Source: an uncultured Acidobacteriaceae bacterium
GTDB lineage: Bacteria > Acidobacteriota > Terriglobia > Acidiferrales > UBA7541
Direction of reading: 5' to 3'
Assembly: GCA_964533185.1 (NCBI GenBank)
Contig: CAZHLD010000002.1
Span: 59,791-123,790 of the forward strand
Length of the DNA stretch: 64,000 bases
Below, piece after piece: positions 35,515-43,110 of this stretch; position 1 is the stretch's first letter, and each line of letters starts with the position of its first letter. Below the pieces are notes generated by a model, which ran no database searches, was not told the origin of the DNA, and saw only the letters and a program-made list of their open reading frames with translations. Both the position numbers and the translations under genes were made by a program.

Positions 35515-37548
35515 GTGCGAATGAGAGAGCGCAAAGAGACCTCCACAGCACTACGTATGTTTGTTTGCGCGGTGATTGTGTGCTGGGGCTGTTCCCAGGT
35601 ACTTGGCCAGAGTTCAAAGCCTGATCTAACAGAAACCAGCCTGGAGACCCTGCTGAACATGCAGGTCTCCTCCGCCTCCCGCAAGCAGGAAAAGTTTTTC
35701 GAAACGTCTGCGGCAATCTTTGTCATTTCGGGGGAAGACATCAGGCGTTCGGGGCTCACCAGCATCCCGGAGCTGCTGCGCATGGTGCCGGGCCTGCAGG
35801 TGGCGCACATTGACGCCAACAAATGGGCCATCAGCGCGCGTGGATTCAATGGTCGGTTTGCCAACAAGCTGCTCGTGCTGATTGATGGTCGTTCGGTGTA
35901 CACCCCGTGGTTCTTCGGCGTGTACTGGGACGTGCAAGACGTTTTGCTCGAGGACATCGAGCGGATAGAGGTCATCCGCGGCCCGGGCGGCACTGTTTGG
36001 GGCGCTAATGCCACGAATGGCGTGATCAACATCATCACTCGGGCCGCTAAGGACACGCAGGGTGGCCTGCTCAGTGCCGGTGCCGGCAACCAGGAACGCG
36101 GCTTTGCCAGTCTACGCTACGGTGCACGCGCCGGAAGCAAGGGTCATTACCGCGTGTTCGCAAAATACTTCGATCGCGGCCCATTCGAACTGCCTTCAGG
36201 CCAAATCGCGCAGGATCAGTGGCATTTCGGGCGAGTTGGCCTCCGTGCGGAGTGGGAGCTGACGCCGAGCGACACGCTGATGTTCAACGCAAGCCTGTAC
36301 GGCGGGCGGGCCGGATTGACAACCACGCTGGTGACCTCCTTCTCTCCGCCATTTGAGCAAACGCTGGTGGGTGAAGCCCATGTGAGCGGCGGTCATGTTC
36401 TCGCGCGGTGGAAACGCAAGGTCTCCAAGCAATCCAACTTCGCAATGCAGCTCTACTACGACCGCACCGACCGCTACGAGTTCATCCAGGGCGAGCACCG
36501 CCAGACGGTGGATTTCGATTTCACCCAGCAGTTGGCCTGGGGTAATCACCACGACCTGGTCTGGGGCCTGGGCTTCCGTTACACAACGGATCAGACCCAG
36601 CCCAGGTTTTTTGCCGCACTCGTCCCAGCCAGCCGGCAGGACCAGGTCTGGAGCGGATTCATTCAGGATGAGATTAGGTTGTTTTCCAAGCGCCTCCACC
36701 TGACCATAGGCTCGAAGTTCGAGCACAACGGATATACCGGGTTCGAGGTTCAGCCGAGTGCCCGAGCCTTGTGGTCCTTCACTCCCCATCATGCTGTGTG
36801 GGGCGCTATTTCTCGAGCCGTGCGCACTCCCTCCCGGGCGGAGCAGGATGTGCGCTTCATTTTGGGTGCGTTCTCGACTCCGACTGGCCCGCCCACGGTG
36901 ATTGCCGCATTCGGTGACCCGGCCTTCCGCTCGGAAGATCTTCTGGCCTATGAGCTGGGTTACCGCCTCAATCCGGGCAAGCGAATCTCCCTTGATCTGG
37001 CCACCTTCTATAACCTGTACGATCATCTCAGGGCGTTCCGACCGGAGGTGCCTTTTCTCGCGCTCGACCCTCCTCCGCCGCACATTGTTGTACCGCTTCG
37101 GTTGGTAAACGGGATGCGCGGCCATACCTACGGTGCGGAACTTGCCGGCAACCTGGACCTGACCCACAGGTGGCGGTTGAGCCCAGGGCTAACGTTCGTC
37201 CGCCAGCACCTGCGCGCCGCTCCGGGTACGAATAGCACCCTCTCGGAAGCGAACGAGGGCGACAACCCGGTCTGGCAAGCTCACTTGCGATCATTCGTGG
37301 ATCTCCCGCACCAGGTAGAGTGGGATTTGACGCTGCAGCTGGTTGGGCCCCTGGCCGCCCAGGACACGCCTCGTTACGCCAGACTGGACATGCGGCTTGG
37401 CTGGCTTCCGACCGACACCCTGAGTGTATGCGTAGTCCTGCAAAACTTGGCTGATCCTCGTCATCAGGAATTCAATGCCTTCCCACAGTTTGCTTCTAGT
37501 ACGCAGGTGCGCCGCAGCGCCTACGCCAAATTCACCTGGAGCTTCTGA
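35515..37548 (+). CDS. TonB-dependent receptor (plug + beta-barrel), no N-terminal signalling extension
   Basis: Signal peptide, plug motifs AIFVISGEDIRRSGLTSIPELLRMVPGLQV and IEVIRGPGGTVWGANATNGVINII, and a C-terminal ...AKFTWSF. ATG 35521 is an alternative start. Confidence 0.85.
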   Translation: MRMRERKETSTALRMFVCAVIVCWGCSQVLGQSSKPDLTETSLETLLNMQVSSASRKQEKFFETSAAIFVISGEDIRRSGLTSIPELLRMVPGLQVAHIDANKWAISARGFNGRFANKLLVLIDGRSVYTPWFFGVYWDVQDVLLEDIERIEVIRGPGGTVWGANATNGVINIITRAAKDTQGGLLSAGAGNQERGFASLRYGARAGSKGHYRVFAKYFDRGPFELPSGQIAQDQWHFGRVGLRAEWELTPSDTLMFNASLYGGRAGLTTTLVTSFSPPFEQTLVGEAHVSGGHVLARWKRKVSKQSNFAMQLYYDRTDRYEFIQGEHRQTVDFDFTQQLAWGNHHDLVWGLGFRYTTDQTQPRFFAALVPASRQDQVWSGFIQDEIRLFSKRLHLTIGSKFEHNGYTGFEVQPSARALWSFTPHHAVWGAISRAVRTPSRAEQDVRFILGAFSTPTGPPTVIAAFGDPAFRSEDLLAYELGYRLNPGKRISLDLATFYNLYDHLRAFRPEVPFLALDPPPPHIVVPLRLVNGMRGHTYGAELAGNLDLTHRWRLSPGLTFVRQHLRAAPGTNSTLSEANEGDNPVWQAHLRSFVDLPHQVEWDLTLQLVGPLAAQDTPRYARLDMRLGWLPTDTLSVCVVLQNLADPRHQEFNAFPQFASSTQVRRSAYAKFTWSF

Positions 37549-38172
37549 GTGGATGCTGGAGCCTGTGTCCAAAGTCAACGGCCGGACAGGCCCTCGCTCC
37601 TGTCCGCAGTGAAGATCGCGCGAAGGGTGCTTTTCTTGTTCACATTGGCAGTCTTTGCCAGCGGGCGCTTGGCCTGGGCGCAGTCTGACTCACCTTCCGA
37701 GTATCAGGTCAAAGCTGCGTTCCTTTATAACTTCGCTAAATTTGTCGAGTGGCCCTCCATTGCCTTTCCTGACTCCGGGTCTCCCTTCGTATTCGGCATC
37801 GTTGGTGATGATCCCTTCGAAGGCCAACTCACCACAATGCTCTTGGAGAAAAGCCTGAGTGGAAGGAGATTCGTCGTTCGGCGCTTTCGCCGGGACGAAG
37901 ACCTCCGCCAATGCCACGTTCTCTTCATCAGCTCTTCCGAGAAAAAGTTTCTGACGCTGATCCTGGGGAGCGTCAGGGGTTCCAGCGTCCTGACCGTCGC
38001 CGATACCGATGGCTTTGCCCGCCAGGGCGGGATAATCGGGCTGGTTTTGGAAGAAAACCGCGTGCGGCTCGAGGTGAATCCACAACTCGCTGAGCGCTCC
38101 CACCTAAAGATCAGCTCCAAGCTGCTCGCTCTGGCCCGGATCGTCGGAGAGAACGGGGTGAAGAGCAACTGA
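37549..38172 (+). CDS. YfiR-like periplasmic protein (DUF4154 family)
   Basis: Signature [18 protein letters not shown] after the signal peptide ([25 protein letters not shown]). GTG 37609 is a plausible true start. It abuts the receptor stop codon. Confidence 0.75.
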
Positions 38173-38173
38173 G

Positions 38174-41100: not shown

Positions 41101-42118
41101 GAAACCGGAGCTGGCCGGCGCTGTCATCCTCATGCTCACCTCAGATACACAAAAAGGTGATTTGGAGCGGTGTCGCGAGCTGGGCATTGCTGCCCACCTG
41201 GTCAAGCCTGTCACGCAGTCTGATCTGTTGGACACCATTCTGTTGCTTCTGGGCAAGCGAATCGCCCCGGCCGCCGAGCCGGAGTCTTCCCCCTCTCAGC
41301 CGCAGACGTCGCGCACTCTGCGCATCCTCCTGGCGGAGGACAACCCCGTCAACCAGCAGCTGGCTGTCCGCCTCTTGCGCAAGCGCAGACACACTGTTGT
41401 TGTCGCAGGCAACGGCCGCGAGGCAGTGGACCATCTCGAGCGTAGTAAATACTCCGGCTTCGACATTGTTCTCATGGACGTGCAAATGCCGGAAATGAAC
41501 GGTTGGGAGGCCACCGCAGCGATCCGCGCCCGGGAATCACAGTTCGGCGTGCACACACCGATCGTGGCCATGACCGCCCACGCCCTCAAAGGCGACCAGG
41601 AACGCTGCCTGGCCGCCGGGATGGATGGCTACGTCTCCAAACCGATTCGCTCCGACATCCTGGTTGCAGAGATAGAACGATGCCTCTCCGCCACGCAAAC
41701 ATCTCCTAAGACACCTTCTTCAAAGACGCTGCCCGCGAATTCTCATTCCACCGTTGCTGAAGACCCGCTTCAGGAGGTCCTGCACCGCCAAGCGCTCCTG
41801 GATCGCGTCGAGGGTGATCGGGCGCTGCTGGCGGAGATGGTAGCGCTTTTCTTCGAAGAATCGCCTCGCCAGCTCGCCGAGTTGCAGGACTCGCTCGCAA
41901 ACGGTGACGCCCCTGCCGCCGAGCGGGCGGCCCACAAACTAAAGGGTGCCGTCGGCAACTTTGCTGCTCCGGCGGCCGCGGCTGCGGCCGAGAAGGCAGA
42001 ACATCTCGCACGGGCCGGCGACCTCGACCGCGCCCGCGCCGCCGCATCCACTCTGGATAAAGAGCTCGAACGCCTGCGGCCTGTTTTAACCGCACTGTGC
42101 TCGGAGGTTAGCCAGTGA
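38174..42118 (+). CDS. Hybrid sensor histidine kinase: TM-CHASE8-TM-HAMP-3xPAS-HisKA-HATPase-REC-REC-Hpt
   Basis: The periplasmic segment between the two TMs resembles the YfiN-type CHASE8 domain. H-box [10 protein letters not shown] (H669), N/G boxes, receivers with D959 and D1102, and Hpt AAHKLKGA (H1254). Confidence 0.9.
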
Positions 42119-43110
42119 GAGTTCTTGTTGCCGATGATGAGCCGGTCTCCCGCCGTCTCTTGCAGTCCATGTTGGTGAAATGGGGCTACGATGTGCTGGC
42201 TGCCTCCGATGGCGATCAGGCCTGGGAGATCCTTCATGGTGAGCAGGCCCCGCGCCTGGCGTTGCTTGACTGGATGATGCCCGGTCGGAAGGGAATCGAG
42301 ATTTGCCGGGCTGTGCGCGCCCGTTTGAGCCAGCCCTATGTTTATATCCTTCTCCTGACCGCCCGGAAGGATAAAATTGATGTGATTGAGGGTCTCGAAT
42401 CCGGCGCAGACGATTACCTCACCAAGCCGTACTTTGCCCAGGAGCTTCGCGCCCGCCTGCGCGTGGGCGAGCGTATCCTTGAGCTGGAAGATCACCTGGT
42501 GGCTGCCCGCGAGGCCATGCACTTCCGTGCCACCCACGACCCGCTCACCGGCCTCTGGAATCGGGCGGCCATTCTGGACAGTTTGAATCGCGAGCTGCCT
42601 CGCGCTCACCGCGAAGGCCGCCCGCTGGGCATCCTGCTCGCAGATTTGGATCACTTCAAGAAGATCAACGACACCAATGGTCACCTCGCCGGGGATGAAG
42701 TCCTGCGTGAGGCCGCTCGCCGCATGCTGTCGGCGGTTCGCAGCTATGATCTGGTCGGCCGCTATGGCGGGGAGGAGTTCTTGCTGTTGCTTTCCGGCTG
42801 CGATGCGGCGAGCATCTTTGATCGCGCCGAACACCTGCGACGTGCGATTGCATCAGAACCGGTAAAGGCCGTCGAGGGCCCTCTGGAGGTCACCATCAGC
42901 GTGGGCGCCGTCACGTCCGCTGGACTCCGAGAGCTCGACGCGGACGCCTTTCTCCGGGCAGCGGATCAGGCGCTCTACCGGGCCAAAAATGCCGGCCGCA
43001 ATCGGGTTGAGATTGTCGGCCCGGACGAATTGCAGGCGTTGCTGCAGAACTCAGAAAAGACGCCCCGGCTTGCCAGCACGAAGGAAGAGTTGACGGCTCC
43101 TAAAGATTGA
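42115..43110 (+). CDS. Response regulator-diguanylate cyclase (REC-GGDEF)
   Basis: [10 protein letters not shown]...LLDWMMPG (D52). GGEEF at 42766-42780 with an RxxD I-site (RSYD) five residues upstream. GTGA overlap with the kinase stop. Confidence 0.9.

Follow-up and report, generated by a model that had tools for sequence, protein, structure and literature searches.

The window examined here, a 64,000-nt stretch of contig CAZHLD010000002.1 from an uncultured Acidobacteriaceae bacterium, holds a cluster of four genes (g1 to g4) encoding an outer-membrane TonB-dependent receptor (TBDR), a periplasmic YfiR-like protein, an inner-membrane hybrid histidine kinase with a CHASE8 domain, and a response regulator predicted to make cyclic di-GMP (c-di-GMP). 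Based on which genes are present, on their domains and families, on the conservation of the first three genes across genomes, and on a short N-terminal peptide tag of the outer-membrane partners, we posit, by analogy with the YfiBNR system, that the window is one case of a widespread three-part trans-envelope sensory module in which the CHASE8 domain and the barrel tag are bound in turn by the YfiR-like protein. We give this reading a probability of about one half.

YfiBNR is a well-studied route from the state of the envelope to c-di-GMP and Pseudomonas persistence, and its outer-membrane step needs YfiB. Most YfiR/YfiN-type pairs come without YfiB, and the window belongs to that larger group, whose members come from phyla of soil and sediment that are difficult to work with. 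What, then, feeds YfiB-less YfiR/CHASE8 systems? The comparison below gives a concrete candidate for the replacement of YfiB, a barrel with a defined N-terminal tag, and makes this long-standing gap directly testable. All four genes lie on the forward strand; here and below, coordinates of the cluster are positions in the whole window.

35515..37548, + strand: g1, TBDR of the TOL_0244 family, with signal peptide, tag, plug at residues 63-170, barrel and terminal Phe
37549..38172, + strand: g2, periplasmic YfiR-like protein of the TOL_0243 family, with DUF4154 at residues 52-197
38174..42118, + strand: g3, inner-membrane hybrid histidine kinase, assigned from Pfam and NF053592
42115..43110, + strand: g4, REC and GGDEF domains, predicted diguanylate cyclase, assigned from Pfam, key residues and its junction with g3

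Conservation of the first three genes

The scan took one genome per species and returned more than 586 loci, of which the best 80 (L001 to L080) were analysed by searching their six-frame open reading frames (ORFs) with the domains of the window. These 80 loci come from at least 10 phyla, their sources being Acidobacteriota, Nitrospirota, Verrucomicrobiota, Planctomycetota, Deferribacteres, Desulfobacterota, Latescibacterota, Armatimonadota, Binatia, Cytophagia and others. In 74 of the 76 loci with room for it, a CHASE8-HAMP gene comes immediately after the YfiR-like gene. A TBDR gene immediately precedes the YfiR-like gene on the same strand in 58 of 74 loci; in 4 others the TBDR gene is divergent, and in 7 it sits elsewhere in the locus. 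Because the TBDR follows the kinase in L018 and L068, the barrel linkage survives rearrangement. All five proteobacterial loci on plasmids or chromids (two from Sphingobium, one from Indioceanicola and two from Pseudoalteromonas) hold the triad, at 27-42% identity. The adjacency of receptor, YfiR-like gene and CHASE8 gene, to which an earlier note on this DNA had drawn attention, is thus strongly conserved. Two loci, L024 (7775-10522) and L075 (7820-10540), hold a TBDR and YfiR-like pair with no adjacent CHASE8 gene and with unrelated genes next to it; a transmitter gene may lie at another site, or such a pair may act in a separate role.

Of the 67 CHASE8 proteins that are complete, 61 are kinases: 17 are plain, 27 carry receivers, and 17 carry both receivers and an Hpt domain. 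In L007 and L023 the CHASE8 protein is of the GGDEF-EAL type. A REC-GGDEF gene comes next in 14 loci, any GGDEF gene follows in 24 of 64, and 13 of the 17 Hpt-bearing kinases have a GGDEF gene within 3.5 kb downstream. Based on these neighbourhood counts, the first three genes are the conserved unit and the cyclase is one frequent output of several, so the c-di-GMP output that the earlier note had treated as a defining part loses that standing. As read from the sequences, the sensory parts stay together and the outputs are swapped. With E. coli YfiB as phmmer query (E < 1e-3), neither the window nor any of the 80 loci yielded a YfiB-like gene, in keeping with the earlier proposal that YfiB has been replaced here.

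A tag shared by unrelated barrels

In g1, Pfam finds a plug (72.2 bits) and a TonB_dep_Rec barrel (104.3 bits) ending in TWSF, and the protein passes the NCBIfam model NF053590 (TOL_0244 family TBDR) with 678.4 bits against a cut-off of 645. The plug begins at residue 63 and the Pfam search found no STN domain, which bears out the description of g1 as a TBDR with a C-terminal Phe and without a FecA-type extension. The TBDRs that adjoin YfiR-like genes elsewhere fall into two barrel families with little in common beyond the plug, F1 (TOL_0244-like, 46 genes) and F2 (27 genes), plus singletons; the receptor of L019, for example, reaches only 91.7 bits on NF053590, and its YfiR-like neighbour passes its own model with 170.9. 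In three loci the upstream gene is not a TBDR at all, and instead encodes a plug-less, MetA-like barrel of ~330 residues. Two of these barrels (L007 and L061) are related to PF13557 (Phenol_MetA_deg) and have an aromatic C-terminal residue; the third (L021) is an ORF without a Pfam match, grouped with L007 and L061 on visual inspection of its sequence.

L007, 8649-9794: MetA-like barrel, tag HDLTDLSLEELMDLDV
L061, 8844-9944: MetA-like barrel, tag QDLTELSLEELMVLDI
L021, 8688-9959: MetA-like barrel, tag DDLTELSPEELIDMDV

What these barrels share is a tag of ~15 residues directly after the signal peptide, with the consensus D-L-T-x-L-S-[LIM]-E-[ED]-L-M-x-[IVM]-x-V. The copy in g1, which a hidden Markov model (HMM) of the tag matches at E 8.7e-9, is as follows.

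35623..35667, + strand: tag of g1, residues 37-51, DLTETSLETLLNMQV, five residues past the predicted signal-peptide cleavage site

The tag is present on 76 of 76 TBDR ORFs adjoining YfiR-like genes, whether of F1, F2 or the singletons, and on all three MetA-like barrels; in the proteobacterial loci its variants are still recognisable. Among ~9000 six-frame ORFs, a 25-column HMM of the tag had no match other than these barrels. A scan of metagenomes for the back-translated motif LEELMNIEV gave 120 sites, 118 of them at the N-termini of TBDR ORFs. Among the 57 near-full-length, assessable receptors, 50 were accompanied by a YfiR-like gene in their locus (for F1-like receptors 43 of 49, for other TBDRs 7 of 8), in a sample enriched for relatives of the families from which the motif was derived. 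A blind sample for specificity took 6 TBDRs at even steps through the 1464 plasmid matches to the plug of g1. In five of them the TonB box was of the ordinary kind, and both the tag and a YfiR-like gene were missing; the sixth, from a Ralstonia solanacearum megaplasmid, carried the tag (E 2e-10), and behind it lie a YfiR-like ORF that is not annotated and a CHASE8-...-EAL gene.

That the tag predicts an adjacent YfiR-like gene appears new. In the sources searched, the use of several unrelated barrels as outer-membrane partner and the portable tag common to them likewise appear to be undescribed. The earlier note had put a TBDR-like barrel in the place of YfiB, and the presence of the tag on all partners lends that assignment independent support; what does not stand is a single receptor family in this role, the outer-membrane partner being, to judge from these comparisons, any of several barrels with a common tag.

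Two further loci bear on the tag. The Ralstonia solanacearum locus (L208; CP076416.1, 1089871-1097230) has its tag-bearing TBDR at 3372-5330, and its YfiR-like ORF is unlisted and possibly frameshifted, with two overlapping ORF matches at 5026-5898. An ORF of L158 (123-881) has a signal peptide, the tag and a partial plug, and behind it come genes for a CHASE8 hybrid kinase and a REC-GGDEF protein. It was considered as a natural fusion of TBDR and YfiR-like protein and rejected: an in-frame deletion joins the N-terminus of a TBDR to the C-terminal half of a YfiR-like protein, so that the ORF is apparently the remnant of a deletion or an artefact of assembly.

The proposed switch and its alternatives

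YfiR represses YfiN by binding its periplasmic domain (PMC3375315, PMC4655355), and YfiB sequesters YfiR via an unwound N-terminal linker, by strand pairing and by placing a Met into a hydrophobic pocket (PMC4655355). How close to this pair are g2 and g3? The DUF4154 signature reported earlier for g2 is borne out at 160.8 bits (Pfam gathering threshold 24.9), and g2 passes NF053591 (TOL_0243 family YfiR-like periplasmic protein) with 165.8 against a cut-off of 125. BLASTP of g2 against E. coli YfiR is not significant, phmmer against the PDB YfiR gives E = 0.003, and the family profile of g2 finds YfiR at E 1e-7. When the AlphaFold2 model of g2 (mean predicted local distance difference test score 81.6) was compared with the PDB by Foldseek, the top 15 matches were all YfiR, at TM-scores of 0.72-0.79 and ~20% identity. 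The link of g2 to YfiR is one of superfamily and fold only, seen by profile and fold comparison. In the family alignment, invariant residues are concentrated in an N-terminal stretch (E31-W48) and a C-terminal stretch (N157-L173), which match by position helix alpha1 and the C-terminal strand and helices of YfiR, that is, its conserved partner-binding surface (PMC4655355).

On the side of g3, an alignment pairs the ASLTF of its CHASE8 domain with the AAVVF of E. coli DgcN, and A61 and F65 do not vary among 5 divergent sequences; AAVVF, with its exposed Phe, is the YfiR-binding site of YfiN proposed by Malone et al. 2012 (PMC3375315). Both the domain and family matches and this alignment uphold the view that the YfiR-like/CHASE8 sensing pair is retained. 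The periplasmic domain is flanked by transmembrane helices at about residues 13-35 and 160-180 (hydropathy), after which HAMP follows, and the domain order of g3 is the one that had been called before.

38294..38611, + strand: g3 CHASE8 periplasmic domain, residues 41-146 (Pfam 64.4 bits, gathering threshold 27)
38717..38875, + strand: g3 HAMP (Pfam 38 bits)
39002..40093, + strand: g3 three cytoplasmic PAS domains (Pfam PAS, PAS_9 and PAS_4, three stretches each)
40148..40822, + strand: g3 HisKA, with H669 in SHEIRTP, and HATPase_c (Pfam)
40895..41674, + strand: g3 two receivers, D959 and D1102 (Pfam Response_reg, two stretches)
41834..42079, + strand: g3 Hpt, H1254 (Pfam 58.4 bits)

g4 has a receiver with D52, GGEEF at 218-222, and an RSYD I-site five residues upstream, and we predict that it is a REC-GGDEF diguanylate cyclase of the PleD/WspR kind. 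Each residue of g3 and g4 that the earlier note had named is exact.

In our model, the parts are a tagged outer-membrane barrel, a small periplasmic YfiR-fold protein, and an inner-membrane CHASE8-HAMP transmitter. By analogy with YfiR, YfiN and YfiB, the YfiR-like protein would bind CHASE8 via the conserved Ala/Phe patch and keep the transmitter in one signalling state. The TonB boxes of BtuB, FecA and FhuA become exposed upon ligand binding; in a similar way, cargo binding by the barrel would release the N-terminal tag into the periplasm, and the freed tag would capture the YfiR-like protein and thereby switch the transmitter. H669 would then hand its phosphate to an Asp in one of the receivers (D1102 being the likeliest, with D959 in an extra receiver), from where it would reach H1254 of the Hpt and finally D52 of g4, and g4 would make c-di-GMP, feedback-limited via its RSYD I-site. 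We infer this phosphorelay route from the architecture, the GTGA coupling of g3 to g4, and the association of Hpt-bearing kinases with downstream GGDEF genes; the binding partners, the sign of regulation and the part of a ligand we place by analogy. Because it holds a nearly invariant Leu-Met and a strand-like stretch, the tag could plausibly serve for docking, and its exposure would then signal that cargo is bound.

We speculate, at odds clearly short of even, that the principle could be general and represent a very widespread type of trans-envelope signalling that had escaped notice: barrels of unrelated fold would bear a portable ~15-residue peptide, its exposure would report the state of the barrel, and a soluble YfiR-fold adaptor would read it and switch CHASE8 transmitters with kinases or c-di-GMP enzymes as outputs, as a short-linear-motif counterpart of FecA-type signalling and an ancestral form of the YfiB step. 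If the tag is a docking site, then thousands of orphan TBDRs would be sensors as well as transporters; if it is not, the window is an ordinary member of a catalogued, uncharacterised family. Culturable hosts of the module exist, namely, Ralstonia solanacearum and the hosts of the Sphingobium (for one, S. indicum pSRL1, L081) and Pseudoalteromonas (for one, L086) replicons.

Several observations weigh against the proposed switch or limit what speaks for it. By-eye comparison with Iha places the C-terminal half of the TBDR tag (in g1 LLNMQVSSAS, strand-like) exactly at the TonB-box position, with the DLTxxSLEEL half as an added extension ahead of it, and given this position, the tag may be only a lineage-specific extended TonB box. 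In the enriched metagenomic sample, 7 of the 57 tag-bearing TBDRs have no YfiR-like gene nearby, and in two loci (L027 and L045) the YfiR-like/CHASE8 pair occurs with no barrel gene detected in the locus. Distance matrices of YfiR-like proteins and CHASE8 domains correlate at r=0.84, and those of CHASE8 and the kinase core of the same protein at r=0.64, a mirror-tree result that supports a co-evolving sensory module and is confounded by shared phylogeny, such that interaction and shared history are not separable in it. Finally, YfiR-like sequences do not cluster by the family of the adjoining TBDR (mean identities 0.434, 0.446 and 0.430), and the nearest neighbour of a YfiR-like protein belongs with the same TBDR family in 37 of 59 cases, versus 33 by chance. 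This absence of co-divergence between YfiR-like protein and barrel is compatible with recognition of a common tag, yet it is not evidence for it.

Loci with more than one receptor are relevant here. In L026 (2673-11026) and L046 (5573-12959), one F1 TBDR and one F2 TBDR occur with two YfiR-like genes and one kinase each. L043 groups with these two loci, each TBDR family being present once, with tandem YfiR-like paralogues (~50% identical) and a single CHASE8 kinase. The sequences of the tandem YfiR-like paralogues in these three loci are not matched to the barrel families; the idea that YfiR-like paralogues are so matched was rejected, since no co-divergence was seen.

The main rival account holds that the barrel only admits a small molecule, which is sensed once inside: the YfiR-like protein would be a ligand-binding co-sensor, or CHASE8 would bind the ligand itself, on the model of the LuxP/LuxQ, TorT/TorS and ChvE/VirA co-sensors and of PfeA with PfeS/PfeR, with no contact between barrel and YfiR-like protein and with the tag as a lineage TonB box or hatch. 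In favour of this account, YfiR has the fold of one half of a type I periplasmic binding protein and binds vitamin B6 and L-Trp in crystals. Any import channel would serve upstream, as would fit the interchangeable barrels found there (two TBDR families and MetA-like channels), and tandem TBDR paralogues are common in the loci; the lack of co-divergence just described also speaks for this account. At the same time it cuts the other way, in that different cargos should make the YfiR-like protein diverge with the type of barrel. Import followed by sensing leaves unexplained why one N-terminal peptide is found on unrelated, even plug-less barrels and tracks YfiR-like genes, and the pairs of TBDR and YfiR-like gene in L024 and L075 have no CHASE8 gene beside them. 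On balance we consider it unlikely, if clearly worth keeping in view.

We think it quite improbable that only the YfiR-like protein and CHASE8 work together and that the receptor is merely co-transcribed, as a regulated target or by inherited synteny, with the tag serving something unrelated such as sorting or assembly. A YfiR-YfiN core without an outer-membrane partner is indeed documented as widespread (PMC3375315), and the two loci in which no barrel gene was detected fit this picture. However, the tag predicts the presence of a YfiR-like gene, and the barrel linkage is kept across the at least 10 phyla, through changes of gene order and through replacement by unrelated barrels, which would be unexpected from inherited synteny. 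A flow of information in the reverse direction, in which the YfiR-like protein gates the barrel or competes with TonB at an extended TonB box and the kinase controls or reports transport, could draw on the overlap of the tag with the TonB-box position, on the lone TBDR and YfiR-like pairs of L024 and L075, and on the abutment of g1 and g2 without a spacer, but we hold it to be very improbable given that CHASE8-HAMP is an input architecture for cytoplasmic outputs, that YfiR is an established repressor of YfiN, that the CHASE8 partner is adjacent in nearly all loci (the 74 of 76 above), and that in MetA-like barrels TonB would lack a plug as its target.

Known relatives and the setting of the cluster

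How much of this was known? NCBIfam release 20 contains three curated models (NF053590, NF053591 and NF053592) for exactly this triad, and the window proteins pass all of them, g3 scoring 217.8 on NF053592 (‘sensor HK, YfiR-like protein-associated’, where HK stands for histidine kinase; cut-off 194) over residues 8-233. With g1, g2 and g3 above the cut-offs and their genes adjacent, the window is a member of this catalogued triad. The models name a conserved neighbourhood only, without function, mechanism or tag, and many related loci lie outside them, with the other TBDR family, a MetA-like barrel or non-kinase outputs. Malone et al. 2012 had already described in silico a YfiR-YfiN[PAS/HAMP] core, mostly without YfiB, whose outputs are kinase, Hpt, GGDEF-EAL and MCP (methyl-accepting chemotaxis protein) and whose examples include Acidobacteria bacterium Ellin345 (PMC3375315). 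The window shares with this core a YfiR homologue and a YfiN-type sensor with kinase-type outputs, in a mostly YfiB-less setting; that paper makes no mention of TonB-dependent receptors or of a replacement outer-membrane partner (PMC3375315). Full-text searches of the literature found no functional study of the triad and, in searchable papers, no mention of a receptor link; for PA3268-PA3271, a possible example from Pseudomonas, they returned no papers. With the triad in NCBIfam and the kinase-output YfiR-sensor core described in 2012, novelty is less than the earlier note implied: the architecture is already catalogued and extends the modular core of 2012.

The likeness to YfiBNR itself (TpbB/DgcN and HmsCDE; Pseudomonas, E. 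coli and Yersinia) lies in the pairing of a DUF4154/YfiR-fold periplasmic protein with a CHASE8-HAMP inner-membrane transmitter, in the Ala/Phe patch that is kept, in an outer-membrane partner gene in the operon, and, in the window, in c-di-GMP as predicted final output. The differences are several. g2 is of a paralogous family, TOL_0243; on the YfiR equivalog model NF053586 it falls short, with 34.9 bits against a cut-off of 85, and its mature part has a single Cys (C122), whereas YfiR has two conserved, disulfide-forming Cys pairs that control redox behaviour and stability (PMC4655355). The transmitter is a hybrid kinase of the order CHASE8-HAMP-PAS3-HisKA-HATPase-REC2-Hpt, in contrast to the CHASE8-HAMP-GGDEF cyclase YfiN, the GGDEF domain here being on a separate response regulator, and the partner is a tagged beta-barrel in place of the OmpA/Pal-like lipoprotein YfiB. 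Since g2 fails the YfiR model, the window has no YfiB-like gene and the transmitter is a kinase, the system of the window is not a member of YfiBNR, and the label ‘YfiBNR-type’ of the earlier note has to be given up; it probably works like the YfiR-YfiN core all the same.

Two other comparisons are instructive. As in FecA-FecR-FecI signalling, the periplasmic N-terminus of a TBDR would report ligand occupancy to an inner-membrane protein; here, however, there is no STN domain and no anti-sigma/extracytoplasmic function (ECF) sigma pair among the neighbours, the signal would be carried by a 15-residue peptide that a soluble adaptor reads, and would end in a two-component phosphorelay or in c-di-GMP enzymes. 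With the REC-GGDEF proteins PleD and WspR and the relays of the BarA/TorS/ArcB type, the cluster shares the H-D-H-D architecture, and the receiver, GGEEF and RxxD of g4 are intact. None of the equivalog cut-offs is reached (BarA, 536 versus 890; PleD, 240 versus 474). g3 has one extra receiver and g4 a single one.

The four ORFs and all three junctions are exactly as first read, with the genes on one strand and tightly spaced. The TGA of g1 is followed directly by the GTG of g2 (37546-37551) with zero spacer, 1 nt precedes the ATG of g3 at 38174, and the stop of g3 overlaps the start of g4 in GTGA (42115-42118). g2 begins with a 20-residue extension (MDAGAC...; 37549-37608) that is kept in relatives down to 73% identity, and GGAG lies ~8 nt upstream of GTG 37549. 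Because of this conservation and the upstream GGAG, the long start and the zero-spacer junction probably stand, and an internal start at GTG 37609, suspected at first, was set aside on the same grounds. The extension precedes the signal-peptide core, making an unusually long n-region for a Sec signal. Relatives of g2 number more than 7800 at E < 1e-5, the closest being metagenomic Terriglobia-like sequences. Ranks 16-20 of its fold search were taken by a 155-residue single-domain ‘substrate-binding protein’ of Rhodothermus marinus (5Z6V, 6K1X and others; TM-score ~0.6, 13% identity), which might be a distant YfiR-fold relative and which the sequence profile did not detect.

The cluster is a discrete unit among unrelated housekeeping neighbours, bounded by a 600-nt gap upstream and a convergent gene downstream and flanked by genes for cysS, an aminotransferase, a GalT-like protein, tRNA-Cys, DUF4760, an MscS-like protein and a tricorn-like protease. 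The 600-nt leader, searched for a clue to the cargo of the receptor, matched no riboswitch or other RNA even at E <= 1, and scans for sigma-70 promoters and terminators gave matches no better than shuffled sequence. The tRNA-Cys gene (GCA; 34206-34282) comes 3.3 kb after the gene for cysteinyl-tRNA synthetase (29266-30888) and 1.2 kb before the operon. A genomic island at this tRNA gene was rejected, there being no repeat of the tRNA 3' end within the window, and the two ORFs between tRNA-Cys and g1 (34423-34914, + strand, and 34972-35322, - strand) have no family matches. The large tricorn-like protease gene (PD40 repeats, Tricorn_C1 and Peptidase_S41) lies downstream of the cluster at 45439-48873. 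The window also contains another two-component pair, unrelated to the cluster, with the ORF of its response regulator at 51560-52297 and that of its histidine kinase next, at 52301-54067.

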